NCBI RefSeq assembly: GCF_964204865.1
Contig: NC_135250.1
Coordinates: forward strand, 26,908,001 to 26,972,000
From: Styela clava
Taxonomy: Eukaryota
Length of the DNA: 64,000 bases
Direction: 5' to 3'
Part shown: positions 6,001 to 64,000 of the stretch, piece by piece
Layout of the letters: each line of letters opens with the position of its first letter
Position numbering within the stretch: position 1 is the first letter of the stretch
Made by a program: the position numbers and the translations under genes
Notes under the pieces: model-generated
The model's input: the letters and a program-made list of their open reading frames with translations, nothing else
The model's database searches: none
What the model was told of the DNA's origin: nothing

Positions 6001-9000
6001 AAATGACCTTGGTTCTCTTTTTTGGTCACCCTGTAAAATCAAAATTAAAACTTACAAGTACTGTCTGTCCAGCTTTTTTCAACAGAGCCTTTGATACAGC
6101 AGATCCGCTCATGTCAGCAACATATTTTGGAGGACTTATACTCACAATCACATCATCCTGTAATATGGAAACAAATTGTTGCTGAATCATTTATTAATAA
6201 ATTTTGGTGATGAACTCTCTATAAATGTCCTTGTTCACGCTGATGCCTCTTAACTAGCTACTTTTTATGTGACACGTATACCATTATTAACACCTTGCGC
6301 TCAGAACACAATACTATACCAGTAGCACTGTCTGCGTTATCCACATCTATTACTTAGGAAAAGGTCCTCCTGTGCGAGTTCAAAGGGTTGTCTACTGTGG
6401 GGGATTATTAGGTGCAACATAGCTAGACTCCACTCCATGGTAGGGTGGTCCACAAAACTATGATTGGTTACGAATGCTACTCCTATCTAGTCCATGCATC
6501 TGAAACAAATAACTGGTTAACTATTCCCATACTCGACATTAATTGGTAATTGAATGAAAGACCGTGGTTTGCCATATTATGATTAACTTATGATTTCCCC
6601 ACCCCTGGGATAGATATGAAAATCCCATCCTGAGATGGGATGGCGTCAGAATGAGAAGTTTGAAAATGAGTTTATCTATTACAAAAATGGGCGCTCCTGT
6701 AGTATGTATACCAATATGGCGGTAACTGATTTTGTTTGCCCATTTTACATCAAGTTGTGTAAAAAGACTGAAACCTTTGGGCGGGGGGTATATTCACTCA
6801 GCTAACACAAACAGTCCCCGAACTTGTAATAGAACTAAAATAAGGGAAATCGGAATAAAATTAGGGCGTAATCCTAACCTGATGCACATACTATTGGTAC
6901 CACATATATAACAATTTTATATCTATATATTTGTGCATCACTTTCTTATACTAAAACAAATCTTACATTACGTGCTGTGATATCTCCTTGCACCAATGAA
7001 ACATTGCATGAAGTATTTAAACTTGCAACCTGAGGTTGAGTATTTTGGTTAGGCTGGACCGTGGGGTTAGATTGGAAAGAATTATTTCCATGTTTCTTTA
7101 TATTCTTCACAAACTCATCAAGAATGTCTTGTTTGCTGTTTTCAACAAGGTCAATCTAAAAATAAATTAATAATCAGACTGTCGGATGAAATCTTATGAA
7201 AATACATTTGTGCTAGCGCACTCTTGAGTTGAATATAATATATAATGTCATTTTCATTTTTGCTACAGCAATCTTTCATTAAATGAATATGGATCTATTA
7301 GCGCAAAAGGATAAAGAAAGGATAGCAATTTAGTTTCAAGTAATCACATCTGATAGTTTCTATATTATGATTTGATATCCATCATAGCAGGACTGTTAGG
7401 ATAACCCAATCATATTATACCATATTTTATAGGTTCAACAAGCCGAAGAGAATCTGAAAATGAGGGGTTTTCCATATTATCACCCAATAAGTCAATGTAG
7501 AAAATTTGCATTTTTTTTAGCGTTTTGTATCCTATACTCATTTTATTCATCAGCTATGCACCAATGCACGCTCTTTCGTTGACTAGTTTTTCTAATATTG
7601 ATTCTATTTTACTCATCAAACCTACCTTAGTTATCACAGAATCAGTAGTATCTTTAAAATACTCTGCTATTGCTTCCAAAATTAATGGAATGCAGATTCT
7701 TGGATTTCCACCAAAGACTCCACAACTTATTGCTGGCATGGCTATTGACTTCAGTTGTTGGTTTTCAACTTCCTCAAGGGATTTTGAAACGCAGGCTTTC
7801 AACAAGAGAGACGGGTCACTTCTATCTGACTGAGAATCCCATCTTAGTGTAGAAAATAAAAATATATTCGTTTTGTTGAACATATTTTAGCTTGGCTGTT
7901 GGTGAATCGTGCAATGCATTACGAATACACTTGTCATTGCACCTTTGATTACCCTGCGTAGGTTGAAATCCCTTGGGATAGTAAAGTGCAAGAGAATTGT
8001 TCAACACTTCTTTGTCATAGGGTAAGTTATGCAATCGCGGGTCAGTTACAGCCTCGTTGACCATCAGGTGAACGCATCTAAAATGATCAACTCTCAGAAA
8101 TCATTAACTGCATATAAAGAGCCTTGTTTAAAGTCACAACTTTGTGAGAACTAGCATGAAATAGTAACCGGACGAGGGGTCATGGTTTGTCATATGATTA
8201 GGCCATCTTCTTGACTTCTCTCTGCCAAGAATATGCAATAAAAATCATATTCTATATTCACTTTACTTTTGTGCATTTCATTTACTTCTACGGGGGTTTC
8301 TTAATCTGCTTTGAGCAAATTTCCAAAATAACAACATCCACATACCTTGGACCAACAGCATGGACAATCTTTTTGCAAGAAGGTGAATTTCCAGCCCCAG
8401 TTAAAACTGCATCACCAGGCAGAAGGTTTCCACGGTTACTACTTATAATTCTGTTCATTTCTGTTTGAATTTGATTTCCATTTTTGACATCTTATTGTAT
8501 AGGAAATAGAAATAAAATAAACTTAAATAATATTATTACCAAGCATTTTATTCATCAATGCATTTTATACACTATTACCGGTAGTCATCATTCATTGCAA
8601 AACAGATATCGTCCCTGCATTTAGCAATAGTGGAACTAAGAAATTAACTGCTGAGGCAGTTTTTTCCCTGAGATGGATTTTCTAGCATGGTTGTGAACAT
8701 TAACAGCTGCTTGAATATTTTGAAAATGTGTGTTTCAACTCATGCCCTAATATGGCAAACACTCACTAAATGGATGTCAAAACTAGGCAATTGTCAATTG
8801 TAAAGTATTGGAATTAATTTTATGCTATTTTTTTTACCATGTTGGACCTACCTACTTAGTAGAACGGAATAGAAAATGCTTCAAAATAATTATTGTGAAA
8901 TTAAAATCATTACCTAAGTTTTTGATGACACCAGACACACCACCTGCCAACAACTTTAATTCTGGATTTGATGTGTTTACTATGACATCACAGGTATGCT

Positions 9001-12000
9001 TTGTGATGTCAACTTTCCAAACAGTCAAGGTCACTGATGAATTTGCCAAGGTCACAGAAGCCAATTGTTGTGTCCTTGTATTCTATGTGACAAGAAAATA
9101 AGAAGTTAAACAAAGTAATGTAAAGTAGCATTGTATTAGGTATGTGTTCTCATTATCGGGCACCCATCCTAAGCCTACAAGTTTGAATCTTGCAGAAGAT
9201 AGTTCTGTGCAAGAGAATTGATAGACTTCTTCATCGTCATAGTGAGGTGCATGTCACTGCCCACAGCCAGAAGAAAAGTATTTTTTGGTATACGGAATTC
9301 ACAACTAGGGCTGTCCAAAATCGAATATTTTTTTGCTTCGAATTGAACCAAATATTTTTCTCGAATCGAACCGAATAATCAAATATTATTGCGCAATCCT
9401 AAATTTGTCTCTAGTGTACAATAAAAACTTCCTCTTCAATATTGTGATAACGTATGTGCAGTTATATCTAAATTATTGCAAATATTTTGCATAACTACCT
9501 ATGTTTCCAGAGTTATAAAATGAGATCACAAGCCTCCTTGAACTGCCAAAAAAATTAGGGTTTTAAAAACTATCAAGTTTTAAGAGTTGGAAGTTGCACA
9601 GACTCTTTTAATGGTCATAGTTGCTATTTTAGTCCTATTATCATTAGTATTATTAACTCAATATTTTTTGTGTAATTTTCAGTAAAATGATAAACAACTA
9701 TTAATATAGATATAACTGTTGCCCAAAAAATTCAAAATTGCATCTCGGTAACTCACAAATTCAGAGCTAGTTTGATGACATTAATATTTGAAACAAAGTA
9801 TTGCCATTAGAAGAAATTACAAATTCTATTGGAAAAAGATATTGGACCTCCAAAACGTGTTTCAGTCCTGTACCATGTTCCTATGATTACTGACTCAACA
9901 GCTACAAATCGATAGAACTGGCGTTTTTGGCTGACACAAAATTTGCTTTTTTCTCCTTGTGTTCTCTCAAAAAACGTCATCTTTAAATCATTGTCATCAT
10001 TACCGATAACTTTTCATTTATGACCATGCATGGAATGGATAATTAGGTACATGTCACTGGGCAATAGGAGAGACCTTTTTACAGCAAAGAAAGCGATAGA
10101 AACATGTTTTTGCTTGCCCGGTGAAAAACGCGGTGCAAAGGTGGTCGTGAGGCGCATTATGTACCAAATTTTAGCGATTTGTAAATTGGCCGAAAAACGC
10201 TTCGAATAGTTTGCGATTCAATCTCGAATATTCGGTTCGCTTGGACAGCCCTATTCACAACCACTTAGTTATTTCTCCAGTCATCGTCTATTACTGAATA
10301 GAGTACTTTGCCAGTGATATCTAATGAAAAAAAAATAAATGAGGTTGTTTGCTGGTCTTTCCAAGGTTATGGATGATAGTTTACAGATTGTTTACAGATA
10401 GAAGTACTACCGGTAGTATCTGGATAAACTGCTGTCGCTGATTAACTATACATTAACATAGCCGATTTTTACACACTCACCGAAGAAGCAGGCCTTCTAC
10501 TTCTCGACCTTGGAACAGGAGCTTGCTGCCTCGCCTCTGGGTTGAATTTAACCCATTCCTCACAGAGGGGCGACATTAAAATGATACAATCATTCATTTT
10601 TTCAGTTGTTGATAAAAACTTTTTGCCTTTAGTTTGATAATATTCCTTAATTCCAGCGATGTTTAGATTGGTTGTCTGTTCAATCACTTGGTTTTGGAGA
10701 AGTGTTAGTGCCGAATGTGCTGTAATAATATCGTACATTAAAAGTTAAAATAGCACAATAAGATGTTTTTATATTTATTTTTGTGAAAAAGAGTGCTGAC
10801 AAGCTGAAAATAAAAAGTTGAGAAGAAGCCTAATAATATGGTTCGACACATGACGCATCACGCCATACATTATGAATGTGCTTGTCATCACAACTGATTA
10901 CTCTGTACGAGTTCTTGGGTTCGAAACCTGTAAACCTGTGGGGTATATTTATGTGCAAGGGGGTTGCTAGACTCCTCCCCACCATAGGGTGAATCACGTG
11001 GACTGCTGGTCAGAAATGGATACTTCATTATCTAGTCCGTGCCTCTGAAAAAAAAACTGGCTAACGAATCCCATACCCAACATGGACTGGTAACCAGAGG
11101 AGAGGCCGTGGTTCGCCATATGATTAAGCCATTTAATCTGCTTTCCGTTTTCTGCAGGGTGAATATGTAAATCCTATTTTCCTAATATTACTTAGAAGGA
11201 CCAAAATTTTCGCAGTTTGGCATTGCCAACCCAATTTATTACAACTTGGGTGAAGTGGGGGCATGAGACTTGAAGCCCAGATGTGTAATTGCGTTGCTAA
11301 CAGAGTTAATTATAGCACCTTAACCCTCTGGCCATCGCCACCACTTAAAACTTCCCTGTTTCCCTCCTGCAAAAAAATCTTACCATCTTCAAGTGGTTTT
11401 CTTTTTCCTTCAATACATAATCCACCTCCATTTTCAGGAGTCAAACTACATTTTATTGATTTCTGTTTGCATTTCTCCATAGAATATTCTTCAGATCTTT
11501 CCACGATAAATTTTGCTTGTCCATATTTCATTGTAATATAAATGCACTTGATTGAATTTTCATCCAGAAATGAGTTGACTTTGTTCTTCAAAATTCTTAA
11601 TTCTGAAAGTTCTGATACTAATATGAGACTTTGATTGGGCTGAAAAAAGAACATAAAAATCATTTTAATAGAAATTCTAGGTCACTGCTTCTCAACTTTC
11701 GTCATTTATGGCATGTTTCCAAAGATTGCCATTGCTTATAGCCCTCTGCTCTTCTATCAAAATACCTAGTTTTCTTTTCGGTTATTTTATCCCATACGTT
11801 AATAATGAAAAGCCAACAAATTATTGTGAAAGAATAAATGCATTATGGTGAAATAATTGTAATAATCATAGTCAATAAATGTAGTGATTGAGAATGAAAC
11901 CTACTGACTTCTTTCGATATAGCCTTCGGAGAACTGGATAAGATTTACATATTTATCCCAGGGGAGAGGAAAGTGATAAAACAGCTTAATTATATGGCGA

Positions 12001-15000
12001 ACCACAGCATCCTCTTGCACAAAATTAACTGATTTATGGTCTAAATTAATTTCAAAAGAATTGACTGTGGTTTGTTCGATACTTCAACTGTAAAACATTC
12101 ATTCTATTGCTTTTTTTTAGTTTTTATTATTAAACGTGGCACATGCATTAACTAATAACAATGCACTAAAAGCAAAACTATACATTTTTGTAGGAGCAGG
12201 TGGCAAGTGATTCTTTAAAAGAGGGTAAAGATCATGAACATGGGAAAACACAACTGGGTTTGAACCTGCTACATCTAACCAGCATATTATTCGATACAAA
12301 TTTTCAACAGTGTATTTTCCACCTACTTTTATATAAAGTCCGTATATTCCAGATTTTTTAAGATTTTGTTGAAATCCTCTCCATGCAGGAGATTTCACCA
12401 GACTTGATCCAGATTGGTCTGTTTTTATTGTTTCCGTGGCAACCATTTCTTTGATAATACGAATGGTTTTTTTGAACTCGTCATCTGACCGACTTCTCAA
12501 ACAAAGCTCGTCATCATCAATTCCGAGAGAAGCTGTAAGTAAACGAGTTGCATGATATGATTTTCATGTTTGTTTCATGGAGGGGAACGGGCAAAATTGA
12601 AAAGACAATACCCGCGCCCTCATAATTGGGACTAGAACCCACACAGCGTAATCAGAGCTTTGATGGCAAGTGCGTTCGCTAACGTTTGCAAAGCATTATT
12701 TCATTTTATTTACGAAGAAGACCCTTATAATACCAGCATGTACGGTATACAATTTCATATGACATGTACTATAATTATATTATCATTTGTTTGTAATTTG
12801 AATAATTATTTCATTGTGTCAGCTATTTGTATTTATCTATTATGTTAATATATGAACACAGTCAGTGTTAATGAACAAATTTATATACTCTCATAGTGTA
12901 TGTACCAGGTTAGGGTTAGGCCAATATTTCAATGCGATTTTCCTTATTTCAGTTCTATTACGAGTTCAGGACCTCCCTGTGTTAGACAAGTGAATTTCCC
13001 CCCTGCCCATATGTTTCAGTCCCTTTATACAACTTGATGTGAAGTAGGCCAGCGGTTCCCAACCTTTCTACCCTGGTGGACCGGTAAAATTAGACTAAAT
13101 GTACTCGCCGACCGGCAAAAAATTGAAATGGCCGGAACAGAAAAAAATACCATATATCCGCGTAATATAACGCAATGTCGGGCACTCAATATACTTCTAG
13201 ACAAAAAAGCACACTTAAAAACATTTCACACGCCCAAATTTAATAGTATTATATTTACAGTATAACCACCGATACCTTTGATGTTATCGATCTTCAGTTT
13301 GTCTTGTATTTTTGATATAACGATGTTAGACTGAGATGCTGATTCCAATAAATATCTAACTATGCTCTCATCTACATCTGATAATTTTCTTTTTTCAACA
13401 GTCTGTTATGAAATGAGGAATTTATTGGTTAATCAAATGTCAAGAAGAGAATTGGATTGATTTTTATCCTGTAAATATATAAAGATGAAAAGAATTTGTA
13501 TGGAAATCCAATCACTAACTATTGTCTTGATACAATGGTAGTTTATATATGTTAATACGCAGTTCATTTTCAATGTTCCAGATGCATTGATGGGCTTCCT
13601 AACCCAGTATAGTTTTTTTAAAAACCTTCTTTCTGTAATTTGAATATGAGTGATTTTTATGGCTTAAAAATTTGACTCAGATATACGTAAACTCAAGTAA
13701 TGTTTTTACAGTTTATTTTCATATATTATCCAGGGAAGAGCAAAACAGTAGCCATTTGGACCAAACAGTAACTGGTACAAACTTGTTAGTTTCACTAAAC
13801 ATGGGCCTACAGCCAGAATAGAGGATACAATAGGAACGTCTTATTTTCACTATCAGACACTTGTATTTGCATATAATTAGTAACTTTTTACATTTAATGA
13901 TGCACGGGATAAAACAGATAGTAAACCTTGAGGGCTGCAGAGCAATATGTCAAAGCACCATGAACAATGTGCTGTGGCCAGTTGAACAGTTGAAAGTATT
14001 GGTTTGATACAGCTTCTCTTTAAATTTTTCATTTTAATGGTAGCTATGTCCACTTCAAACCAAATTTAAACCTATTTAAATTCTAGTATATTAACATTAC
14101 TGGTATTGCAAACTGTGTGTATCACCCAGACTAATTCTCCTCCGGCTAATAAGAAGTATTATATTATATTCCAACAAAGCAATTGAAAAAAATAAGAATT
14201 ATGTTATGCTACCCTAACAAATATTAAAAAATTCATAACTAACATTCAATATAGTCAAAGCATCAATTTGAATCCTTGAAACATCCACTTCAGGTCCCTG
14301 TAATGTCACACTGTGCTTTGCATCATCTAGTTTTAATTGTACTTTCTTATGCTTAGCTTGAAGTTCGGACAGTATTCCGCAGTTTGTAAGAATTCTGTCA
14401 ATAGAGTAGAATAACATGGCAAATGGATTAAACAGCCCAAATAGAAGAATTGAACAGCCCTAATTTAATAAAGTTACTTCGTAAAGAGGAACGAGTGTTT
14501 AGGAGTTGGTTGAATGGTGGACTTTGCGATGCTTGCTTGGAAAATGAAACCTCAAATACTTTATAATTCATTGTCCCCACTACAACTTCCCAAGATCATT
14601 TTTATTTAACCATTGGAAGGAACTGAATATATCTCCTGTAATAATATCAATTTGTTTACATACTTTTCGCCGCTTTTGCGCTTCTGTTCAATTCAACCAG
14701 AATTGCATTAAGATTAATATTTTTTGTTAAAAGAACGAGTTCTTTACCCATCAAATAATTAGAAACAGGGGCAGTTTTTTTAATACCAGAGTCAGAACCA
14801 TGGGTATATATTTTTTAATTCCTAAGTCGAATTTTCAATTTCCACCAAGTCACAATTTCAGATTTCTGCAGTCAAGGTTTGAAAATAAAACAAATTTTCA
14901 TAGTCATACGTTTATTAATTAACCAAACTCTGGAATGGAGTCTATTCAATAAGACAGATTTATTTCAAATCAAGAATAATCAGTTTTATCTTTGAATTTT

Positions 15001-18000
15001 AACAAACTTTCATTACAAATTGCATGGGTTTGTCCATAATGGCAATGGCATAATAATTCCAACACATGTTGGCATGAAGCAAATAAACAAACAAACATTA
15101 AAAGTTATCTGTATAAATCGGCATTCCACAAAAAGGGAATATTCACCTGTATTGTTCTTCATTAACTGACATTTCAGCAACAGTTGAATTGATAGAAGTT
15201 TCAATTTCTTTCATTATTTTATCAACAGATTCTTTCAATCCTGTTACAGTTACTATTGGTTGATTGGGTTGCCACCTGAATAAATTGAAGACATGAAAAC
15301 AAAAATTCAGTCGTAAATAGAATAAGTATTTGAAAACAATGATTCATATTATGTCATCTATTATGAACAACATTGATTATCACCCTGTTTGAATGCAAAA
15401 TTTAACACATGTGGGTAAGATGGTCTAGTGCAGTGGTTCTCAAACTTGAAAAAAATTTCATGACAGACTCCCTGCAATTTTTTTTATGATATTTTTAGTG
15501 CGCGGCCTTGTGCATCAAAACATATTAAGATCACAACATAAAATTAATGCACCATATAGTAAAAAAAATACAACCAAACAAAAGTATATGCCAAAGTTTA
15601 ATGAGATGGGTGCAATTGTTTCATTGTAAAACAGCATTTAGAAGCGGACTGGCAAAACTTCATAAATTGCCTACTGTAACTTCCTCCTAAATCACCAAAC
15701 GTGCAAAAGGGCAGCCTCAGCTACACCTCTGCAGTTAGTTAACTTGTAATGGCAGCAATTGAACTCTCACTGTGATGTCACATGCTCACAGCTCTGTGAC
15801 ATCACAGTGGGGCTGCTTAATAGAAACTGAAAGTTTTTAAAAAAGAAAACGGAAAAGTGAAATAATCACTAACCTGATGTTGATATCATTCTTAGTTTCT
15901 GGTTTATTCAAATAAGGACAAACGTTGAGTGATATTGCTTTGCTTAATTTATCTTTGTCAAATGTTTGAGTCAAAGTTAAAAACTTGGTAATGAAATCAT
16001 CAAATCTTGTTTTGCATTCAGTATCGAATCCATCTTGGGTGTCCATGCCTGGATCCTGTAAAAAGAACAATAGGAAAAATGTCCCCAATGACCTTAAATG
16101 ATAAATCAAAACAGACTGAAAAAAATGAATGACTAAATGAACTCATATAATGACTCCAACAGATCACTGAAACTAATCAGTAATCAGTAAATTATTTTAC
16201 ACATGCCAAAAATACGCATTGTACGTACAGACAAGAGACAGATAAAAAAAATGCATTCTATTGTGAAGGGAGACTCGATAAACCAGTAATAGTTATTTAG
16301 CAGCGTCAGCTATGGAGGAAGTCTAACATTAAATTATACTGTAGAAAAAAATCAAACATTTAAATACTAAGAAAAGCCGGAAATGAAAGACATACAGGCG
16401 ACGGATATTCGAGTCTTGTTCATAACAATGAAAGCAAACGACTCCACACATGACAGACGAGGTAATTTAAAGATAAGTTCATGGCATTCTGATTCAATTA
16501 AACGTAAACAGGTTTGTCAGCTACAACATATGTAAACTTTTTCTGGTTAATACCTTTTCTGGAACAAACTTGACAAATTTCCCTTCTTTTGCAGTATGAC
16601 ACAATTCAACATTGGCCAAATCTTTGAAAACGTCTTTTATTTTGTTAACTTGCGCTTTAGTTAGTCGAATGAAGAAGAAAATTTTATCATGACATTCAGG
16701 TTTGTAAATGTAAGTGCTCAGTGTTTCATTTTTTTGAGATCTTGGAGTAGGCTTGGGTGGATCTGAATTTAAAATGAAAAGGAATGAGTGAATATTAAAA
16801 AGTCATGCTTCGGAAAAAAATTATGGGCATAGAAGTTGAAGCGACAAACTAAGATGTGTTGGCATCGCAGGTTACAAATCTCCCATGCTCACCAACTAAC
16901 CGAAGGTATAATGCATTGGGCAGAAAGAGTCTTGTTCCTAACAAAAGTTATAAAAAAGATAAGTACCGATGGGGATCATATGTAGTCTATGGACATTGAG
17001 GAAAATATATAATGAAACTTGATGTTTGGTGCATTATTCTAAATGTTTAAAGGGGACGAGACGGCAAAGTACCATGAGAAACAATTATGGACAATAGGAT
17101 TGCTAGACTTCTCACCTTCGTGAGATGGTTCATGTAACTGCTGGTCAATTATGACTTCCTCCACCATGAAGCCCACACAGATAAATGAATAACTGATTAC
17201 CTATTACCATACCCGACATAGATTGGTAACTGGATGAGAGCCAGCTTACCCCTCTTTCCTCTCAGTCTGCCATATGATTAAGCCACTTCACTGTCTTTCT
17301 CCTCTCAAACAAAATAAATAAACATAAAAAATCCAATCTTATTTTTTACCTTTTTTGCCACCTTTTCGTAGATTTTTCCCGTTTTCACTTTTTTCAACAC
17401 TTTTATGTAGATTTGAGAGTGAATGAAAATACAATTCAACTTCAACAGGATGTTGCCCAATAATAATTGATTCAGAACTAGGTTTTTTGAATCTTTTGCA
17501 TACTCGAGCAGTATCTAAAGAGTTTAACAGAAATTTTAATTTTTTTGTCAAAATTGGCGACTGTAGAATGAATGTAGTAATTGTGGTCACTGGTCATTTA
17601 TATTGGCATAATTCAATTTATTTTCAACTTTGTTGTGTCTGTTTAATGACAGTGACAACAGTGTTTTACCGGCGCTCTAGAATTACCGTTATGTGTACCA
17701 ATATGGAGGTAACTAATTTTGTTCGCTCACTTTACATCAAGTTGTGTAAAGGGACTAAAACCTATGGGCAGAGAATATTTTTACTTGGCTATCACAAACA
17801 GTCCCCGAACTCGCAATAGAACAAAAATAAGGAAAATCGGAATCAAATTATGGCCTAACCCTAACCTGGTACACATACTTAGTACCGTTTTACCTGCTGA
17901 GTCATACTTGATATGCGGCTATTGTTATAGTGAATAAAAACTTAGTATTTGTAAAACCTTATAGTTGGCGACAGTATGTTCCCCAGCTTTCCAAGTTAGG

Positions 18001-51000: not shown

Positions 51001-54000
51001 AAAATATACCAAATTTCTTGTTATGAATACCCTTGGAAGAACTTTACTTTATAATCCATATCATTAATCAGTCTAAATGTAGGGCTATCAATCAAGGATA
51101 GGATTTTCATATTTATACTTAATCATATCACCTTTGCCTCTCATTCGATTACAGTTTCTATCGGGTGCGAGAATAGTTAATCCTCCCAGCTATTTTAGGA
51201 GTTTACCTTTTCAGAAATACATTTTTGGGTACTTCTGTAGTATGTGTACCACGTTGAGCTTAGGCTGTAATTTTATTCTGATTTTCTATATTTTAGTTCT
51301 ATTACGAGTTTGGGGACTGTCTGTGTCAGCTAATTGAATATACCTCCTGCCCATAGGCTTCTGTCCATTTACAAATCTTGATGTAAAGTAAGCGAAAAAA
51401 ATTTGTTACCACCATATTGGTACATATATTTCTGGAGCGCCCATTTTTGAGTGACACCTTGTGAGTCTGCAAAATTTGCGCACTCAGAATATTTTTAAAA
51501 CAGCTAAAATCCATAAAAAGTACAATATTTTTTGCATTCCTGAGAAATACCCAAATTCCTTTACACCTAATACTTATTATAACTTTCATACAGATATCAG
51601 TGAAAGAGATTCATTTTTGGAAAAAATTAGGAAGAAACCTTTGGAAGACCGGACTTTGAAAGTAAGCTGAAGTTCTTGCATCAATTATTGTTTTATTGAT
51701 ACTGGTATCAAACGATTTTGTTCAGTGTGACTACAGTTGGCATGGTAGCCAGTAAGCAAATGTTTCATTTTCAATGATTGTGAAAGTCGTACAAACCACT
51801 TTCCAGCAATCCTTCTCACGAAATCATCAAGCATAGGATCCAAAGCAGCGAGCCAGCATGTGAAAATAATGTACCACATACTCGAATGGTATATACTAGT
51901 GACTCAAACTAATCTCAAATCATAGTCAATTTACTTTAAATCAATGTAGTCATTACAAATGGTTCCTAGTCATTGCTAGTAGCGCCCAGATAATTACTCT
52001 TTGTCGCCACAGTGGGGCCAAGGTCCCAGTTTAAGAAACTTTGGTCTGTGCAGTGGCTGAAATATTCCTAAATTTGAACTTTCTTTTATTCCGTGCTTCT
52101 TTGCCATTACATTTTTCAGGCTTCAAGGCTTTTAAGAACTGATTGCCTAAAAGCATCAGGAATTCCAGATTCAGTAACAAATGATACAATCAGACTTACG
52201 TTTGAGAGTAAGAAAAGAACTGATGGTGGGCCTGTGACAAGAATTGATAGAATTGAAAATCAAATTACTTTGGTCTACTTTGCATCCTATATTGGTAAGT
52301 ATTGAAATTTAGTGCATCATACTTTTTTCCAATTACCAGATTCGGTATAGGAATAGTTTTTTTCCCATTTTTTTTTCGAGAAGAATTTGCTAAAACCGCA
52401 GTCAGATGTGCTCATTCAAAACTAGAAGAGACTGATCTCAGAGTAAAGTTATGGATGGCCACTAAAATGATACATGCAAGACTTTTATCCAGTTGGTAAG
52501 GTTTTTTCTCCAAGAGAATTTGCTAAAACCACAGTCCGGTGTACCCATTCAGAACTAGGGGAGACTGATCTCTGAGCAAAGTAACAGGCAGCCATTAAAA
52601 TGACCATAGCTACTGAAACTGTTACTAATAACAAATATCTACCACACCCTAAAATGGACCCCCCCCCCCCCCCCCCCCAGTAACTTGAAAAGCTGGGGAA
52701 CATACTGTCGCCAACTATAAGGTTTTACAAATACTAATTTTTTTATTCACTATAACATTAGCCGCCACTTGAAAGCGGAACATGAATGAAAGCACCAATA
52801 AATATGACTCAATTGAAAGCATATCAAGTATGACTCAGCAGGTAGAACGGTACTAAGTATGTGTACCAGGTTAGGGTTAGGTCATAATTTAATTCCGATT
52901 TTCCTTATTTTAGTTCTATCGCGAGTTCGGGGACTGTCTGTGTTAGCCAAGTGAATATATCCCCTGCCTATAGGTTTCAGTCCCTTTACACAACTTGATG
53001 TAAAGTAAGCGAACAAAATTAGTTACCTCCATATTGGTACACATACCGGTACTTCTAGAGCGCCGGTAAAACACTGTTGTCACTGTCATTACACAGACAC
53101 AACAAAGTTGGAAATAAACTGAATTATGCCAATATAAATGACCAGTGACCACAATTACTACATTCATTCTACAGTCGCCAATTTTGACAAAAAAATTAAA
53201 ATTTCTGTTAAACTCTTTAGATACTGCTCGAGTGTGTAGAAGATTCAAAAAACCTAGTTCTGAATCAATTATTATTGGGCAACATCCTGTTGAAGTTGAA
53301 TTGTATTTTCATTCACTCTCAAATCTACATAAAAGTGTTGAAAAAAGTGAAAACGGGAAAAATCTACGAAAAGGTGGCAAAAAAGGTAAAAAATAAGATT
53401 GGATTTTTTATGTTTATTTATTTTGTTTGAGAGGAGAAAGACAGTGAAGTGGCTTAATCATATGGCAGACTGAGAGGAAAGTGGGGTAAGCTGGCTCTCA
53501 TCCAGTTACCAATCTATGTCGGGTATGGTAATAGGTAATCAGTTATTCATTTATCTGTGTGGGCTTCATGGTGGAGGAAGTCATAATTGACCAGCAGTTA
53601 CATGAACCATCTCACGAAGGTGAGAAGTCTAGCAATCCTATTGTCCATAATTGTTTCTCATGGTACTTTGCCGTCACATCCCCTTTAAACATTTAGAATA
53701 ATGCACCAAACATCAAGTTTCATTATATATTTTCTTCAATGTCCATAGACTACAGATGATCCCCATCGGTACTTTCTTTTTTATAACTTTTGTTAGAAAC
53801 AAGACCCTTTCTGCCCAATGCATTATACCTTCGGTTAGTTGGTGATCATGGGAGTAACCTGCGATGCCAACACATCTTAGTTTGTCGCTTCAACTTCTAT
53901 GCCCATAATTTTTTTCCGAAGCATGACTTTTTAATATTCACTCATTCCTTTTCATTTTAAATTCAGATCCACCCAAGCCTACTCCAAGATCTCAAAAAAA

Positions 54001-57000
54001 TGAAACACTGAGCACTTACATTTACAAACCTGAATGTCATGATAAAATTTTCTTCTTCATTCGACTAACTAAAGCGCAAGTTAACAAAATAAAAGACGTT
54101 TTCAAAGATTTGGCCAATGTTGAATTGTGTCATACTGCAAAAGAAGGGAAATTTGTCAAGTTTGTTCCAGAAAAGGTATTAACCAGAAAAAGTTTACATA
54201 TGTTGTAGCTGACAAACCTGTTTACGTTTAATTGAATCAGAATGCCATGAACTTATCTTTAAATTACCTCGTCTGTCATGTGTGGAGTCGTTTGCTTTCA
54301 TTGTTATGAACAAGACTCGAATATCCGTCGCCTGTATGTCTTTCATTTCCGGCTTTTCTTAGTATTTAAATGTTTGATTTTTTTCTACAGTATAATTTAA
54401 TGTTAGACTTCCTCCATAGCTGACGCTGCTAAATAACTATTACTGGTTTATCGAGTCTCCTTTCACAATAGAATGCATTTTTTTTATCTGTCTTTTGTCT
54501 GTACGTACAATGCGTATTTTTGGCAAGTGTAAAATAATTTACTGATTACTGATTAGTTTCAGTGATCTGTTGGAGTCATTATATGAGTTCATTTAGTCAT
54601 TCATTTTGTTCAGTCTGTTTTGATTTATCATTTAAGGTCATTGGGGACATTTTTCCTATTGTTCTTTTTACAGGATCCAGGCATGGACACCCAAGATGGA
54701 TTCGATACTGAATGCAAAACAAGATTTGATGATTTCATTACCAAGTTTTTAACTTTGACTCAAACATTTGACAAAGATAAATTAAGCAAAGCAATATCAC
54801 TCAACGTTTGTCCTTATTTGAATAAACCAGAAACTAAGAATGATATCAACATCAGGTTAGTGATTATTTCACTTTTCCGTTTTCTTTTTTAAAAACTTTC
54901 AGTTTCTATTAAGCCGCCCCACTGTGATGTCACAGAGCTGTGAGCATGTGACATCACAGTGATAGTTCAATTGCTGCCATTACAAGTTAACTAACTGCAG
55001 AGGTGTAGCTGAGGCTGCCCTTTTGCACGTTTGGTGATTTAGGAGGAAGTTACAGTAGGCAATTTATGAAGTTTTGCCAGTCCGCTTCTAAATGCTGTTT
55101 TACAATGAAACAATTGCACCCATCTCATTAAACTTTGGCATATACTTTTGTTTGGTTGTATTTTTTTACTATATGGTGCATTAATTTTATGTTGTGATCT
55201 TAATATGTTTTGATGCACAAGGCCGCGCACTAAAAATATCATAAAAAAAATTGCAGGGAGTCTGTCATGAAATTTTTTTCAAGTTTGAGAACCACTGCAC
55301 TAGACCATCTTACCCACATGTGTTAAATTTTGCATTCAAACAGGGTGATAATCAATGTTGTTCATAATAGATGACATAATATGAATCATTGTTTTCAAAT
55401 ACTTATTCTATTTACGACTGAATTTTTGTTTTCATGTCTTCAATTTATTCAGGTGGCAACCCAATCAACCAATAGTAACTGTAACAGGATTGAAAGAATC
55501 TGTTGATAAAATAATGAAAGAAATTGAAACTTCTATCAATTCAACTGTTGCTGAAATGTCAGTTAATGAAGAACAATACAGGTGAATATTCCCTTTTTGT
55601 GGAATGCCGATTTATACAGATAACTTTTAATGTTTGTTTGTTTATTTGCTTCATGCCAACATGTGTTGGAATTATTATGCCATTGCCATTATGGACAAAC
55701 CCATGCAATTTGTAATGAAAGTTTGTTAAAATTCAAAGATAAAACTGATTATTCTTGATTTGAAATAAATCTGTCTTATTGAATAGACTCCATTCCAGAG
55801 TTTGGTTAATTAATAAACGTATGACTATGAAAATTTGTTTTATTTTCAAACCTTGACTGCAGAAATCTGAAATTGTGACTTGGTGGAAATTGAAAATTCG
55901 ACTTAGGAATTAAAAAATATATACCTATGGTTCTGACTCTGGTATTAAAAAAACTGCCCCTGTTTCTAATTATTTGATGGGTAAAGAACTCGTTCTTTTA
56001 ACAAAAAATATTAATCCTAATGCAATTCTGGTTGAATTGAACAGGAGCGCAAAAACGGCGAAAAGTATGTAAACAAATTGATATTATTACAGGAGATATA
56101 TTCAGTTCCTTCCAATGGTTAAATAAAAATGATCTTGGGAAGTTGTAGTGGGGACAATAAATTATAAAGTATTTGAGGTTTCATTTTCCAAGCAAGCATC
56201 GCAAAGTCCACCATTCAACCAACTCCTAAACACTCGTTCCTCTTTACGAAGTAACTTTATTAAATTAGGGCTGTTTGATCCATATTATGCTACTCTATTG
56301 ACAGAATTCTTACAAACTGCGGAATACTGTCCGAACTTCAAGCTAAGCATAAGAAAGTACAATTGGTACTAGATGATACAAAGCACAGTGTGACGCTACA
56401 AGGACCTGAAGTCGATGTTTCAAGGATTCAAATTGATGCTTTGACTATATTGAATGTTAGTCATGAATTTTTTCATATTTGTTAGGGTAGCATAACATAA
56501 TTCTTATTTTTTTCAATTGCTTTGTTGGAATATTATATAATACTTCTTATTAGCCGGAGGAGAATTAGTCTGGGTGATACACACAGTTTGCAATACCAGT
56601 AACGTTAATATACTAGAATTTAAATAGGTTTAAATTTGGTTTGAAGTGGACATAGCTACCATTAAAATGAAAAATTTAAAGAGAAGCTGTATCAAACCAA
56701 TACTTTCAACTGTTCAACTGGCCACAGCACATTGTTCATGGTGCTTTGACATAATGCTCTGCAGCCCTCAAGGTTTATTATCTGTTTTATCCCGTGCATC
56801 ATTAAATGTAAAAAGTTACTAATTATATGCAAATACAAGTGTCTGATAGTGAAAATAAGACGTTCCTATTGTATCCTCTATTATGTTTAGTGAAACTAAC
56901 AAGTTTGTACCAGTTACTGTTTGGTCCAAATGGCTACTGTTTTGCTCTTCCCTGGATAATATATGAAAATAAACTGTAAAAACATTACTTGAGTTTACGT

Positions 57001-60000
57001 ATATCTGAGTCAAATTTTTAAGCCATAAAAATCACTCATATTCAAATTACAGAAATAAGGTTTTTAAAAAAACTATACTGGGTTAGGAAGCCCATCAATG
57101 CATCTGGAACATTGAAAATGAACTGCGTATTAACATATATAAACTACCATTGTATCAAGACAATAGTTAGTGATTGGATTTCCATACAAATTCTTTTCAT
57201 CTTTATATATTTACAGGATAAAAATCAATCCAATTCTCTTCTTGACATTTGATTAACCAATAAATTCCTCATTTCATAACAGACTGTTGAAAAAAGAAAA
57301 TTATCAGATGTAGATGAGAGCATAGTTAGATATTTATTGGAATCAGCATCTCAGTCTAACATCGTCATATCAAAAATACAAGACAAACTGAAGATCGATA
57401 ACATCAAAGGTATCGGTGGTTATACTGTAAATATAATACTATTAAATTTGGGCGTGTGAAATGTTTTTAAGTGTGCTTTTTTGTCTAGAAGTATATTGAG
57501 TGCCCGACATTGCGTTATATTACGCGAATATATGTTATTTTTTTCTGTTCCGGCCATTTCAATTTTTTGCCGGTCGGCGAGTACATTTAATCTAATTTTA
57601 CCGGTCCACCAGGGTAGAAAGGTTGGGAACCGCTGGCCTACTTCACATCAAGTTGTATAAAGGGACTGAAACATATGGGCAGGGGGGATATTCACTTGTC
57701 TAACACAGGGAGGTCCTGAACTCGTAATAGAACTGAAATAAGGAAAATCGCATTGAAATATTGGCCTAACCCTAACCTGGTACATACACTATGAGAGTAT
57801 ATAAATTTGTTCATTAACACTGACTGTGTTCATATATTAACATAATAGATAAATACAAATAGCTGACACAATGAAATAATTATTCAAATTACAAACAAAT
57901 GATAATATAATTATAGTATATGTCATATGAAATTGTATACTGTACATGCTGGTATTTTATAAGGGTCTTCTTTGTAAATAAAATGAAATAATGCTTTGCA
58001 AGGGTTAGCGAATGCACTCGCTATCAAAGCTCTGATTACGCTGTGTGGGTTCTAGACCCAATTATGAGGGTGAGGGTATTGTCTTTTCAATTTTGCCCGT
58101 CCCCCTCCATGAAACAAACATGAAAATCATATTATGCAACTCGTTTACTTACAGCTTCTCTCGGAATTGATGATGACGAGCTTTGTTTGAGAGTTCGGTC
58201 AGATGACGATTTCAAAAAAGCCATTCGTATTATCAAAGAAATGGTTGCCACGGAAACAATAAAAACAGACCAATCTCGATCGAGTCTGGTGAAATCTCCT
58301 GCATGGAGAGGATTTCAACAAAATCTTAAAAAATCTGGAATATACGGACTTTATATAAAAGTAGGTGGAAAATACACTGTTAAAAATTTGTATTGAATAA
58401 TATGCTGGTTAGATGTAGCAGGTTCAAACTCAGTTGAGTTCTCCCATTTTCATGATTCTTTCCACTTTTAAAAAATCACTTGCCACCTGCTCCTCTACAA
58501 AAATGTATAGTTTTGCTTTTAGTGCATTGTTATTAGTTAATGCATGTGCCACGTTTAATAATAAAAACTAAAAAAAAGCAATAGAATGAATGTTTTACAG
58601 TTGAAGTATCGAACAAACCACAGTCAATTTTTTTAAAATTAATTTAGACCATGAATCAGTTAATTTTGTGAAAGAGGATTACTGGAATCCTCACTGCTGT
58701 AGGATGGTTCACGTTACTGCTGGCCGGTTGCGGCTTTCTTCACCATCGAGTCCATGCATGCGAGGTATTTTGATAGAAGAGCAGAGGGCCATAAGCAATG
58801 GCAATCTTTGGAAACATGCCAAAATTAGTTTCTATTAAAATGATTTTTATGTTCTTTTTCAGCCCAATCAAAGTCTCATATTAGTATCAGAACTTTCAGA
58901 ATTAAGAATTTTGAAGAACAAAGTCAACTCATTTCTGGATGAAAATTCAATCAAGTGCATTTATATTACAATGAAATATGGACAAGCAAAATTTATCGTG
59001 GAAAGATCTGAAGAATATTCTACTGAGAAATGCAAACAGAAATCAATAAAATGTAGTTTAACTCCTGAAAACGGAGGTGGATTATGCATTGAAGGAAAAA
59101 GGAAACCACTTGAAGATGGTGAGGTTTATTGCGGGGGCAAAATAGAGGATCTTAAATGATAGCCAGGGTATTAATGTGTTAGAGTTAACTGTGTTGGCAA
59201 CGCAATTCCACATCTCGGCTTCGAATCTCATCTCAACCAAAGTTGTAATAAATTGGGTTGGCAATGCCAAACAGCGAAAAAAATGGTCCTTCTAATTAAT
59301 AGTATGATAATAGGATTTACATTTTACGTACGATATTATTATAGAGTAATCAGAGTTGTGATGACAAGCACATTCATAATGCTTGGCGTGATGCCTCATG
59401 TGTCGAGCCATATTATTAGGCTTCTTCTCAACTTTCTATTTTCAGCTTGTCAGCTCTCTTTTAACAAAAATAAAGATAAAAACATCTCATTGTGCTATTC
59501 TAACTTTTAATGTACGATATTATTACAGCACATTCGGCACTAACACTTCTCCAAAATCAAGTGACTGAACAGACAACCAATCTAAACATCGCTGGAATTA
59601 AGGAATATTTTCATACTAAAGGAGGCAAAAAGTTTTTATCAACAACTGAAAAAATGAATGATTGTATCATTTTAATGTCGCCCCTCTGTGAGGAATGGGT
59701 TAAATTCAACCCAGAGGCTAAGCAGCAAGCTCCTGTCCCAAGGTCGAGAAGTAGAAGGCCTGCTTCTTCGGTGAGTGTGTAAAAATTGGCTATGTTAATG
59801 TATAGTTAATCAGCGACAGCAGTTTATCCAGATGCTACCAGTAGTACTTCTATCTGTAAACAATCTGTAAACTATCATCCCTAACCTTGGAAAGACATGC
59901 AAACAACCTCATTTTTCCCCATTAGATATCACTGGCAAAGTACTCTATTCAGTAATAGACGAGGATACTTTTCTTCTGGCTGTGGGCAGTGATATGCACC

Positions 60001-63000
60001 TCACTATGACGATGAAGAAGTCTATCAATTCTCTTGCACAGAATTATCTTCTGCCAGATTCAAACTTGTAGGCTTAGGATGGGTGCTCGATAATGACAAC
60101 ACATACCTAATACAATGCTACTTTACATTACTTTGTTTAACTTCTTATTTTCTTGTCACATAGAATACAAGGGCACAACAATTGGCTTCTGTGACCTTGG
60201 CAAATTCATCAGTGACCTTGACTGTTTGGAAAGTTGACATCACAAAGCATACCTGTGATGTCATAGTAAACACATCAAATCCAGAATTAAAGTTGTTGGC
60301 AGGTGGAGTGTCTGGTGTCATCAAAAACTTAGGTAATGATTTGGATTTCATAATATTTATTTGGTACACCTGAAATATGCGTACCAAGAGGCAAGGCAGC
60401 AATATGCGGACATCGGAGCGTAGTATGTGTACCAGGTTAGGGTTAGGCCATAATTTTATTTCAATTTTTTTTCCCTATTTTAGTTCTATTATGAGTTTGG
60501 GGACTAACCAAGTGACTACCGTAGTATTTGTAGCTAAAATTATGGCCTAACCCTAACTTGGTACACATACTTCAGGAGCGCCAGTTATTTTAAAGCATTC
60601 TCCACTTAGTAGGTAGGTCCAACATGGTAACCACTAGTACTAAGCCAGAGGTTTCATCTGATTTCAATCGTTGTTCACAATTTTCATCTTTATTGAAACA
60701 TTAGCTAAGTATATGCACAACACAAACTTTTGGACAGTTAAAAGACTATATTGTGCACATAAATATTTGTTTTACAATACTACTAAGTAAGTAAAAAACA
60801 TTAGTAATACTACACACAAACACGAAGTTGAATTCCTCAACTAGAACTGTTGAATTCCCTGTTTAAGCAATCATGCTCAGTTGCTCACTGCCGCGCCCTA
60901 TTTTTAGAATTTGTCTCGCCCCCTCCTCAAATATAACTACCGGTATTTAACAATAAGCTACAAATAGCATATATTTTATTCAAAAGCACGTTGAAAATAT
61001 GTGGATGGAATCGCAATCTCTCAACAATGAAGAAATGTAAATATCCAAGAAAAGACCGTCAAAATCAAATCTAACAAATATTTTTATTTTCAATTAGTTT
61101 CATGCCGCCGCAAAAATTTGTCTATGCCCCCTTTGACAAAACTGTCTCAGCAGCAAATAAATTCCTTAGTTGCACTATTGCTAGATGCAGTGACAATATC
61201 GGTCCCACATCTGTTTTGCAATAGATGATGCCAAATAGTCTCTACCTTGGGTGTCGTTGCTAAATAACCAGCTTTGGTTCCCCGTGGCTTTCAGTGAAAT
61301 TTGTATTCAATATTATTCTTTGAATTTTGCTTTTACTTCACTGGATGGGAAAAATAAACTTGACTATGACTGTATAATATACAACAATGAATAAACTGCT
61401 CGGTATAAAAAATTGAAGATTATTTTATTTTTACATTCTATATCAAGATGTCAAAAATGGAAATCAAATTCAAACAGAAATGAACAGAATTATAAGTAGT
61501 AACCGTGGAAACCTTCTGCCTGGTGATGCAGTTTTAACTGGGGCTGGAAATTTACCTTCTTGCAAAAAGATTGTCCATGCGGTTGGTCCAAGGTATGTGG
61601 ATGTTGTTATTTTGGAAATTCGTTTAAACCAGATTAAGAAACCCCCGTAGAAATTAATGAAATGCAAAAAAGTAAAGTGAATATAGAATATCATTTTCAT
61701 TGTTATTCTTGGCAGAGAGAAGTCAAGAAGGTCGCTTAATCATATGACAAACCATGGCCTCTCGTCCGGTTACTATTTCATGCTAGTTCTCACAAAGTTG
61801 TGACTTCAAACAAGGCTCTGTACATGCAGTCAATAATTTCTGAAAAGCTACTGTTTTGTTGCTCACAGTCTGCTCTGTTATTTGTTTTAGATCAGTGGTT
61901 CTCGAACATTTTAAGTCGTGCACCATTTTTAGAATTTGTCAAGTCCTGTGCCCCACATCAAAAAAAAGGCGCACAAGATCAAATCTAACATTTATTTTTA
62001 TTTTTAAATATCTACACAACCCATAAAAAAATCCACGGTTTTAGATGCATTCACCTGATAATGGAGGGGGAAGCTGTAAGTGACCAGCAATTACCTAAAC
62101 CACCCCACAACATAGAAGTGTCCAGCAATTCTCTTGCACATAATTATCCCCCAAGGGATTTGAACTTACGCATGGTAATCAGAGGTGCAATGAAAAGTGT
62201 ATTCCTAATGATTAGCACAATGCACCAACCGCCAAGCTAAATTTGTTCAACAAAATGAATGTCCTTCTATTTTCCACACTTAGATGGGATTCTCAGTCAG
62301 ATAGAAGTGATCCGTCTCTCTTGTTGAAAGCCTGTGTTTCAAAATCCCTTGAAGAAGTTGAAAACCATCAACTAAAGTCAATAGCCATGCCAGCAATTAG
62401 TTGTGGAGTTTTTGGTGGAAATGCAAGAACCTGCATTCCGTTAATTTTAGAAGCAATAGCAGAGTATTTTAAAGATACCGCTAGTTCTGTGATAACAAAG
62501 GTAAGTTTGATGAGTAAAATAGAATCAATATTAGAAAAAAAGGCAACGAAAGAGCGTACATTGGTGCATAGGTGACGCATATAGTGAGTATATAATACAA
62601 AACGATAGAAAAAGCTTGTTGAACCTATAAAATATGGTATAACATGATTGTGTTATCTTAACAGTCCTGCTAAAATAGATATCAAATTATAATATAGGCC
62701 CTATCAGATGCGATTACACGAAACTAAATCGCTATTCTTTCTCTATACTTTTGCACTAAAAGATTCGTTCATAATGTAACATTACTGTAGTAGGAATGAA
62801 AATGACCATTCTTTTCAATTAAAGAGTATTGCCACAAAATACAAATGTTATTTCAGTAAGAATTCATCTGACAATTAGATTATTAACTTATTTTTAGATC
62901 GACCTTGTTGAAAACAGCAAACAAGATATTCTTGATGAGTTAGTGAGGAATATTAAGAAACATGGGACGAATTCTTCCCCTTCAAATTCTACGGCCCAGT

Positions 63001-63750
63001 CTAACCAAAATACTCAACCTCAGGTTGCAAGTTTAAATATTTCATGCAATGTCTCATTGGTACAAGGAGATATCACAGCACGTAATGTAAGTATAATTCT
63101 AATATAAGAAAGTAATGCACAAATAAAACATTTTTGGGCGCTCCAGAAGTATGTGTACCAATATGGAGGTAACTATTTTGTTTGCCTATTTTACATCGAG
63201 ATGTGTGAAGGGACTGAAGCCTATGGGCTGGAGGTGTATTCACTTGGCTAACACAGACAGATAGAACTAAAATAAGGAAAATCGGAATAAAAGTATGGCT
63301 TAACCCTAACCTGGTACACATACTACGGGAGAGAATTTAAGAGTTGGGATGGCATTGCATTTCTCAGGATTTATCATGGAGTAGGGTCTAGCAGTCTTGC
63401 ACTTACCGTAATAATTCCCCACAGTAAACGAACCTTTGAACTTGCACAGGAGGACCTTTTTCGAAGTAAAAGATGTGAATAAAGCAGACAATGCTACTTG
63501 TGTAGGGCGTTGTTTTGAGCGCAAGTTGTGAATAAGCGTACAAGCGTCACATAAAAAGTAGCAACTACATGAACAAGGACATTTATAAAAGGTTTGCACC
63601 AAAATTTTCTAATAAATGAACCAACAAAAGTCTGTTTCCACATTACAGGATGATGTGATTGTTAGTATAAGTCCTCCAAAACACATTGCTGACATGAGCG
63701 GATCTGCTGTATCGAAGGCTCTGTTGAAAAAAGCTGGACAGAGAATACTC
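42012..63750 (+). CDS. PARP14: PARP14-like macro-PARP, copy R (25 coding exons, ~1455 aa visible; continues beyond right edge)
   Basis: Exons: 42012-42165, 42922-43032, 44097-44598, 45137-45218, 45664-45745, 46706-47015, 49076-49224, 49732-49838, 50838-50973, 51594-51661, 52120-52294, 53221-53385, 53967-54175, 54674-54855, 55453-55581, 56305-56455, 57283-57409, 58155-58360, 58863-59118, 59529-59770, 60164-60332, 61448-61592, 62284-62500, 62898-63086, 63649-63750. Exon lengths equal copy L except exon 3 (-66 nt) and exon 20 (+3 nt). The spliced frame is open throughout. Confidence 0.88.
43597..43879. mobile_element. MITE with inverted arrays of GCGAC-core short repeats
   Basis: Tandem TAGCGACTGTCATAATGGCGAC units facing their reverse complement; single arm at 27509-27610. 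Confidence 0.65.
44097..44598 (+). repeat. Coding tandem repeat exon, 5 cores
   Basis: Same exon as 26724-27291 but exactly one 66-nt unit shorter. Confidence 0.9.
48870..49020 (-). mobile_element. Second SINE-like family (paralogous copy ~21972-22120)
   Basis: TGGCTCTGTGG and GAGTTTAAATCCC Pol III-like boxes followed by ATAAATTGGGTAGGCAATGCC. That motif recurs at ~5280, 11235, 23345, 30850, 34520 and 59250. Confidence 0.5.
60164..63750 (+). CDS. Macrodomain 1 and start of macrodomain 2 exons, copy R
   Basis: DITKHTCDVIVNTSN; GAGNLPSCKKIVHAVGPRW; SIAMPAISCGVFGG; QGDITARNDDVIV. Confidence 0.9.
60363..60582. mobile_element. Merlin-like MITE present only in copy R
   Basis: TSD ATTTATTT/AGTTATTT; empty site AATTATTT on the minus strand at ~8885-8892. 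Confidence 0.8.
63137..63332. mobile_element. Merlin-like MITE
   Basis: CATTTTTG|GGCGCTCC start, ends TAACCCTAACCTGGTACACATACTACGGGAG. Confidence 0.7.
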
Positions 63751-64000
63751 GTAAGTTTTAATATCGATTCATTTGGAACATAATTCTAGAGCAGTGGTTT
63801 TTGAACTTATTAAGCCGCTCCCCGTTTTTAGAATTTGTCAAGTCTCATGCCCACCTCAAAAACAACTACCGGTAGCTACAAATAACATATAGTAAGAGAA
63901 AAGTATGTTTTTATTGAAAAACACGTTGAAATACGTGGATGGAACTAAATATTCAAAATGAAGAACCACTATTTTAGATAGAACTTAACTTTTGTGCAAA

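Follow-up and report, generated by a model that had tools for sequence, protein, structure and literature searches.

Two neighbouring gene copies that are almost identical along much of their length and sharply diverged in between raise the question of whether they are recent duplicates, wrongly joined alleles of one locus, or old duplicates that have continued to exchange sequence. The question is posed here by a head-to-head pair of PARP14-like genes, termed A and B, in the ascidian Styela clava. The stretch analysed (NC_135250.1:26908001-26972000, 64 kb, GC content ~35%; 'the window') belongs to an assembly of 377 Mb in 380 contigs. The pair forms the left end of a four-gene cluster, in which two further paralogs, C and D, lie to the right of B and on the strand of B. 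The reading favoured here, with a probability of about 0.75, is that A and B are two real loci, which arose by an old inverted duplication within a tandem PARP14-like cluster and have been patchily homogenised by recombination. The sequence itself shows how both genes are built and that their frames are open; it also shows the order of their domains, the mosaic of identity between them, and the loss of macrodomains from C and D.

Positions below 1 or beyond 64000 extend the numbering of the window into its flanks (324 kb in all, without N). Exon 1 is putative and non-coding; the 37 coding exons are numbered 2-38. Database proteins carry labels such as P0069, P0070 and P0072, and those identical to gene models are from Styela clava. 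P0072-P0074 are XP_039 proteins of an older annotation set; they differ from the present contig and have no link to it, and are taken to represent another assembly.

Inverted arms and their mosaic of identity

The initial annotation had described a palindrome of two intact head-to-head PARP14-like genes with arms of at least 25 kb, and had proposed a self-comparison as a check. Self-BLAST confirms this layout and lengthens the arms to ~45 and ~41.5 kb. The inverted repeat runs across the window, from an outermost block pair at 6037-6442/63769-63372 to an innermost one at 33232-33598/40350-40016, and many of its blocks have E = 0.0, which excludes chance. The fold limits proposed earlier, 33650 and 38588, are correct once a 1370-bp insertion at 38645-40014 is allowed for, and the outer flanks of the arms differ past -11506 and past 80111. 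The features are as follows.

-11506..33650 (in the window 1..33650), minus strand: left arm, ~45 kb as a whole
38588..80111 (in the window 38588..64000), plus strand: right arm, ~41.5 kb as a whole
33650..38588 (~5 kb), no strand: spacer, mostly high-copy repeats, with very high contig depth in several bins
38645..40014 (1370 bp), no strand: non-autonomous insertion with an 8-bp target duplication and terminal inverted repeats of ~15 bp, presumably hAT-like by its target duplication and CAG termini
33522..33600, minus strand: putative exon 1 of A, non-coding; conserved element with a GT donor at its end
40016..40091, plus strand: putative non-coding exon 1 of B, a conserved element
29368 (ATG) to -4484 (stop; in the window 1..29368), minus strand: gene A, 37 coding exons, 2216 aa
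42012 (ATG) to 72924 (stop; in the window 42012..64000), plus strand: gene B, 37 coding exons, 2195 aa
29215..29368, minus strand: A exon 2, dS 0.28 to B, 98% identical to C
42012..42165, plus strand: B exon 2, old unhomogenised island
8346..28432, minus strand: A exons 3-23, homogenised, with exon identities to B of 94.6-100%; covers RRM, KH and macro1 in its N-terminal half
1011..7842, minus strand: A exons 24-32, macro block that is old and not homogenised (compared with B: dS 0.244, omega 0.22)
62284..64000, plus strand: B exons 24-26, where the B-type macro block begins; the whole block (exons 24-32) extends to 68164
7626..9082, minus strand: A macro1 (exons 22-24), with hydrolase-type N1241, G1249/G1250 and V1349-F1350; module deleted in C and D
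60164..62500, plus strand: B macro1 (exons 22-24), with the same hydrolase-type motifs as A
84165..111784, plus strand: gene C, without exons 22-28 (macro1 and macro2), frameshifted before the ART
116702..158062, plus strand: gene D, open, 1906 aa, without exons 22-24 (macro1)

Both arms had been read as keeping open spliced frames with intact splice sites. This holds for the 25 coding exons per arm that lie inside the window and for the whole genes: in A and in B, 36 of 36 acceptors and 36 of 36 donors are AG and GT, the ART exons that were to be looked for past the window are present in both copies, and each frame stays open to one terminal stop. The model of gene A equals P0069 (0/2216 mismatches). 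Residues 451-2195 of gene B are identical to P0070; in the current database, B is modelled only from residue 451 on.

With long inverted arms around a short spacer, the locus has the form of a palindrome. Mammalian sex-chromosome palindromes have a uniform arm identity of >99%; here, arm-to-arm identity is 91.0% overall (38,963 aligned columns), with no more than a few kb above 99%. Counted per kb, most of exons 3-21 (with dips to ~90%) and the part between exon 33 and the outer edge are 94-99.8% identical; the values fall to 66-80% over macro2 and macro3 and are also lower near the promoters. In synonymous divergence (dS), A and B are 0.034 apart in exons 3-23 and 33-38 (36/1080 sites), 0.244 in exons 24-32 (77/372 sites) and 0.28 in exon 2. 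The introns show the same pattern of high and low divergence as the exons, and are partly unalignable around the islands. Seventy synonymous differences fall within 475 codons (aa 1315-1857), compared with 36 in the 1568 codons elsewhere, a degree of clustering reached by 0 of 200 permutations. The A-type and B-type islands each lie at dS 0.18-0.34 from C and D, as far as they lie from one another; since the high island dS equals the distances to C and D, the A/B duplication is old. An arm identity of 97-99% understates its age about seven-fold.

Trees of different segments conflict. Exon 2 groups A with C, exons 3-13 set D apart from A, B and C, whose branches are short, and exons 14-38 group A with B; inside the island, exons 29-32 likewise join A to B (22 sites versus 4). 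Between B and C, most exons and introns from 3 to 13 are 98-100% identical, and C and D are near-identical at the ART end; judged from these comparisons, sequence exchange involves C too. Changes in the islands comprise 34 synonymous and 18 non-synonymous B-specific ones, and 21 and 18, respectively, that are A-specific, so that both lineages were under purifying selection in the unhomogenised blocks. Exons and introns alike have thus been homogenised in patches with incongruent trees. The inverted arms of the initial annotation stand; the mosaic, which it had missed, takes the place of a recent clean duplication.

A further small patch lies in exon 38 of A (about -4255 to -4295), where 10 of 11 A-only substitutions fall within ~35 nt and change six ART residues; the other form is common to B, C, D and the older A model. 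A distant paralog was considered as donor of this patch and none was found, the patch resembling distant paralogs in type only.

The mosaic can be explained by recombination between the arms, which would be favoured by their being long, inverted and close. Gene conversion would have homogenised most of the gene, and crossovers that flip the inner segment are a probable second route. The islands (promoter/exon 2, exons 24-32 and the exon 38 patch) would keep their true age because their introns are too diverged to pair. A whole island could still move through exchanges in its near-identical flanks, either by two arm crossovers (flips) at separate positions and then recombination between alleles in the spacer, or by one long conversion. 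A move of this kind would explain how A in another genome has come to have a B-type macro block.

The macro block at locus A and competing explanations

The older XP_039 set has distinct models for each type: P0072 is A-type, P0073 and P0074 are B-type, and P0041 and P0001 are C-type. Over exons 15-21, P0072 differs from A, and P0073 from B, by 1/427 residues each, while A and B differ by 11; P0072 thus corresponds to A and P0073 to B over these exons, which speaks for two loci. Exons 22-33 of P0072 differ from the present A by 59/696 residues and from B by 7/696, and 54 of 58 diagnostic sites have the residue of B. In exons 34-37, P0072 matches A at 4/6 sites, and in exon 38 it matches B at 6/6. 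P0072 and P0073 differ by 6/696 within the block, compared with ~7/2640 between presumed alleles (Fisher p = 0.036), a modest indication that the P0072 block is not a plain copy of P0073. On the simplest reading of P0072, the macro block at locus A seems to exist in two forms. Among short database proteins (7999 scored candidates), a search for either macro block gave distant homologues only (18 hits, best E 7e-51, 27% identity), and is therefore silent on cassette frequency. The older set also splits B into P0074 and P0073 by a frame change near residue 673, which is either an error or a null allele. B-type database isoforms show an 11-residue difference at the start of exon 32.

A more far-reaching and less probable proposal is that the palindrome works as a cassette exchanger for a defence enzyme of an invertebrate chordate. 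Two macro cassettes with ~24% silent divergence would segregate at A and be moved by flips of the inverted arms; this polymorphism would be old and possibly balanced, and the losses in C and D would tune the writer/reader/eraser ratio of the cluster combinatorially. As part of the same proposal, D would represent a PARP15-like eraser loss and C a decoy reader.

The two genes appear to be served by separate promoters. A promoter/exon-1 element occurs upstream of all four paralogs (for D, score 54 versus a shuffle maximum of 39). According to passages in PMC7817982 and PMC4089025, head-to-head pairs have transcription starts within 1 kb of each other; the putative exon-1 donors of A and B, 33522 and 40091, are 6.6 kb apart, and their start codons 12.6 kb. 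The 1370-bp insertion lies directly upstream of the putative B exon 1. A copy is found upstream of C (1312 identities, 35 mismatches), as are the last 650 bp of the spacer (from 37937), and the end of the insertion is repeated genome-wide (40/40 scored places match, from 757 candidates). Scanned on both strands, the spacer contains one IRF-E-like match (~34228; 0.10 expected), four GAS-like matches (0.97 expected) and one palindromic NF-kB-like match (~36855). Several tests were made without correction; the promoter motif matches are near chance or within repeats, and the IRF-E-like and NF-kB-like ones are not confidently above chance. Each gene thus probably uses its own duplicated promoter rather than a shared one, and the co-regulation from the spacer proposed by the initial annotation is not borne out. 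An upstream open reading frame (ORF) of 11 codons in exon 1, conserved in A and B, was rejected because its ATG is missing in C. A nested fold-back element with 88-91% inverted repeats, high-copy by contig depth, occupies 32293-33203 inside the first intron of A.

Contigs and reads from four runs, two of them guessed to be RNA-type, were checked over positions 27001-47000 of the window. The data included DNA contigs of run X2 and a Hi-C run. The RNA-type contigs end at exon borders and include A-type exon 2 in 2/2 sets and exon 3 in one, with 0 differences; B differs from A by 20 in exon 2 and by 6 in exon 3, so that these contigs can be assigned to A. Away from the divergent islands, neither RNA reads nor gene models can be attributed to one of the copies, and one RNA-type contig spliced from exon 4 to exon 7 fits either. 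A is very likely transcribed. The exon-1 element was not seen in RNA-type contigs in this interval. In the X2 DNA contigs, B-type exon 2 is covered (519 nt, 0 differences) and A exon 1 runs into the spacer (462 nt, 2 differences). X2 contig depths of 387 (B exon 2), ~330-670 (spacer) and 1153 (shared exon 7) fit three loci but are not counted as evidence; contig depth is not copy number, and with Hi-C depth at ~0-1 in unique bins neither is usable as a copy-number test. Assigning expression by paralog-specific differences, as had been suggested, thus succeeded for A, whose spliced contigs are found, but gave no B-type exon 2 in either set.

Several points weigh against the favoured reading and its extensions. 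The B-type block in P0072 is known from predicted proteins, its p value of 0.036 is modest, and an assembly chimera is possible; assemblers mis-resolve just this kind of bubble, with near-identical sequence on either side. Positive selection on the macro block is not supported (omega 0.22 inside versus 0.35 outside, Fisher p = 0.21). B-type exon 2 has zero depth in both RNA-type sets, for which the RNA label is a guess; B may be weakly expressed, and contigs cannot show absence. Among the listed records of the four runs, no read or contig crosses the spacer from arm to arm. WWE exons were to be looked for past the window, and a WWE-like region is present in both copies, but Pfam finds no WWE in A at E 0.1. 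Finally, the enzyme activities and the immune role proposed below are carried over from vertebrates and lancelet.

If the P0072 block is a chimera, the loci and the mosaic would still be real, and the difference in macro blocks between A and B would be fixed, with conversion prevented either by the diverged introns or by selection that maintains two reader specificities. This is a possibility we regard as doubtful. The flanks of the block (~20 kb and 12 kb at mostly 94-99% identity) invite mis-resolution, and the frame change near residue 673 would be a sign of errors in the older set; yet a copied bubble should be identical, whereas P0072 and P0073 differ at six residues, and P0072 has the outgroup-shared residue S1607, as do A and C. 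Nor is omega raised in the block. It is rather unlikely that the insertion weakened the B promoter and that B, nearly silent and kept intact by conversion from A, is a sequence donor only. The exon 2 counts (A-type in 2/2 RNA-type sets, B-type in 0/2), a database model without residues 1-450 and the position of the insertion directly upstream of the exon-1 element all fit a nearly silent B, but the B-specific island changes are mostly synonymous (34 versus 18), C has the same insertion and yet full-length 5' models with two isoforms, and one RNA-type contig is exactly B intron 1, though it may be DNA.

A recent duplication (dS ~0.03) that later received divergent patches from other paralogs would account for arms that are mostly near-identical up to a sharp outer edge, including 7 kb past the genes and a seven-transmembrane (7TM)-like gene (98.5%). 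It is nevertheless unlikely, as there is no donor: the islands stand at dS 0.18-0.34 from C and D, the assembly contains no closer ART locus, and A and B group together in exons 29-32. Slightly less likely still is a head-to-head arrangement maintained by one bidirectional spacer promoter, as in PARP9/DTX3L. The divergent orientation and the IRF-E-like, GAS-like and NF-kB-like matches speak for it; against it, the starts are ~6.4-6.6 kb apart, each gene has its own element, as do the tandem C and D, and the spacer is mostly high-copy repeat, with motif matches uncorrected for several tests. That A and B are alleles of one locus, mis-joined by an assembly fold-back, is highly improbable. Very heterozygous ascidians can show 94-99% allelic identity over long stretches, and no spanning read was seen, but the older set has both A-type and B-type models, each 1/427 from its counterpart; exon 2, the promoter and the macro block reach dS 0.24-0.28 with partly unalignable introns; and the outer flanks differ beyond -11506 and 80111. 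Two old loci with patchwise exchange therefore remain the preferred explanation.

Domain architecture, predicted activities and known relatives

A and B have the domain order RRM-KH-three macrodomains-WWE-like-ART. In P0069, identical to A, Pfam identifies Macro (PF01661) three times (E 6.9e-50), above the curated cut-offs. RRM_PARP14_3, KH_PARP14_8 and, in A, the PARP catalytic domain (PF00644) also exceed the Pfam cut-off, whereas KH_PARP14_2, KH_PARP14_3 and RRM_PARP14_1 fall below it. The three macrodomains of A and B match PARP14 macro1, macro2 and macro3 in order. Three DIT motifs are present in A and in B; D has two macrodomains and C one. At the WWE position there is a weak colinear alignment to the Pfam-WWE stretch 376-440 of P0010, a protein from another ascidian, and the model of this region has the order strand-strand-helix-strand-strand, at a pLDDT of only ~50.

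The top solved relative of the ART is human PARP14 (PDB, E 2.4e-40), with the PARP15 ART also among the best, and the AlphaFold2 model of a C-type fragment, P0001, resembles the PARP15/PARP14 ART (TM score ~0.9 by target length). We take the columns of H2103, Y2133 and I2198 in A to be the ART triad positions. They align with H, Y and L of PARP14 (5v7t). With an H-Y-I triad, the ART should add single ADP-ribose units. For hydrolases, the criteria in section 3.1 of PMC10221186 are Asn or Ser plus Gly at loop 1 and a hydrophobic plus an aromatic residue at loop 2. Only macro1 has these residues (VNTSN..GGV / GVF); macro2 and macro3 are without the Asn and the loop-2 pair. A and B are therefore predicted to be mono-ADP-ribosyl writers that also contain an eraser (macro1), readers (macro2 and macro3) and RNA-binding RRM and KH domains. 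A role in antimicrobial or stress defence is most likely. The vertebrate interferon framing of the initial annotation is a transfer to an ascidian.

Exon 4 (A 26724-27291, B 44097-44598) is a low-complexity array, rich in R/G/N/Q/P/Y, of 66- and 87-bp units. Its length varies with repeat copy number (A 568, B 502, C 568, D 235 nt), and it is possibly RNA-binding or condensate-forming.

A and B are ordinary members of a known family, already annotated as PARP14-like. Human PARP14 (ARTD8/BAL2), which reportedly has dual writer/eraser activity (PMC10499325, PMC10470015), shares the order RRM-KH-macro1/2/3-KH-(WWE)-ART and has hydrolase residues in macro1 only. A and B differ from it in being ~400 aa longer, with an R/G/N/Q/P-rich repeat exon, in having Ile instead of Leu as third triad residue and a WWE below Pfam detection, and in forming two near-identical inverted copies that exchange sequence. 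Gene D resembles mammalian PARP15, a transferase with counterparts of macro2 and macro3 and without macro1, which is confined to mammals according to section 3.1 of PMC10221186. Unlike PARP15, D has retained the N-terminal RRM/KH part, and it originated in an ascidian through an in-frame deletion inside the gene; the likeness is convergent, not orthologous. PARP14-like clusters are known as well: passages in PMC4245714 and PMC13224862 describe local duplication and one to three macrodomains in lancelet and sponge, and these passages mention neither inverted pairs nor concerted evolution, nor any polymorphism of a macro block. PARP9/DTX3L is likewise head to head with a macro-PARP and has a bidirectional promoter (PMC13224862), but there two different genes share one promoter, whereas here paralogs have separate duplicated promoters 6.6 kb apart. 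The same passages report positive selection on PARP14 macrodomains in vertebrates, and Parp14 is up after treatment with interferon-like proteins in lancelet and lamprey (bioRxiv 10.64898/2026.05.30.728932).

For the exchange itself, the closest parallels are in C. elegans, where, according to PMC3966223, the adjacent inverted copies hsp16-48 and hsp70-7/8 are homogenised in exons and introns and share polymorphism, and fog-2/ftr-1 has a conversion-resistant region. Tracts there are mostly 50-200 bp, with a maximum of ~3 kb, whereas the blocks here are 12-20 kb and the exchanged block is ~8-9 kb; this suggests that the large homogenised blocks represent many tracts or crossovers. A published account of the locus, the mosaic or the macro1 losses was not found in a search that left most subscription papers and supplements, including gene-family tables, outside its reach. 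What seems new is an old palindrome with patchwise recombination, a macro block that apparently differs between genomes, and two independent eraser losses nearby. Macro-PARPs figure prominently in the conflict between hosts and viruses. For the balance between the writing and the erasing of ADP-ribose, the locus is a natural experiment outside vertebrates, combining near-identical scaffolds, alternative macro blocks and two deletions of the predicted hydrolase, one of which (D) reproduces the PARP15 macro set.

The rest of the cluster and its neighbours

Macro1 has been lost twice independently, in D and in C. The exon-21/25 junction of D is identical in the database model P0002, and the deletion of exons 22-28 in C is a separate event with 5-bp microhomology. 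Since every macro module begins and ends in phase 0, deletions of macro1 and macro2 stay in frame. In C, a 16-nt deletion in exon 33 leads to a stop at codon 1492, while the last five exons are still open; the C product of the older annotation set is likewise 1491 aa long, with 1 mismatch, so that the frameshift is not peculiar to the present assembly. By their sequences, D would write and read but not erase, and C would yield a reader that has a single macrodomain and no catalytic domain. Exon 18 of C (99309) has a GC donor.

The ART exon has 21 matches in the genome. Five exceed 80% identity, all inside the cluster; of the 21, none outside it exceeds 62%. In a sparse search, named proteins from outside Styela match the ART exon at ≤55% identity, with one unnamed entry at 60%. 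The pair described earlier as lineage-specific thus appears to be so, but it is part of a set of four close paralogs and an orphan ART exon. The latter, an open copy of the last ART exon at 161462-161743 (plus strand; 83% identical to B), lies 3.4 kb past the D stop and could be an alternative last exon of D.

Both arms also carry an intronless ORF for a 336-aa membrane protein (-9629..-8598, plus strand, and 78064-77033, minus strand; 98.5% identical), tail to tail with the PARP genes. It has paralogs at -15376, where the frame changes near the end, and at 231433 (84%). Its Atlas neighbours are chordate 7TM-like clusters (score 0.95-0.96); a Pfam search of this ORF found nothing. To the left of the cluster, long exons at -34903..-39595 (minus strand) presumably encode the C-terminus of a receptor tyrosine kinase. 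About 13 kb past D, an ORF of 473 codons (170751-172169, minus strand) combines protein kinase and Ribonuc_2-5A domains (RNase L/IRE1-type), possibly a second defence gene beside the cluster. Other macro-PARP-like ART exons lie at C1:23495846-23502183, C4:17350358-17419422 and C1:27182632, in clusters with opposite orientations, and inverted pairs may recur in the macro-PARP family of the present assembly.

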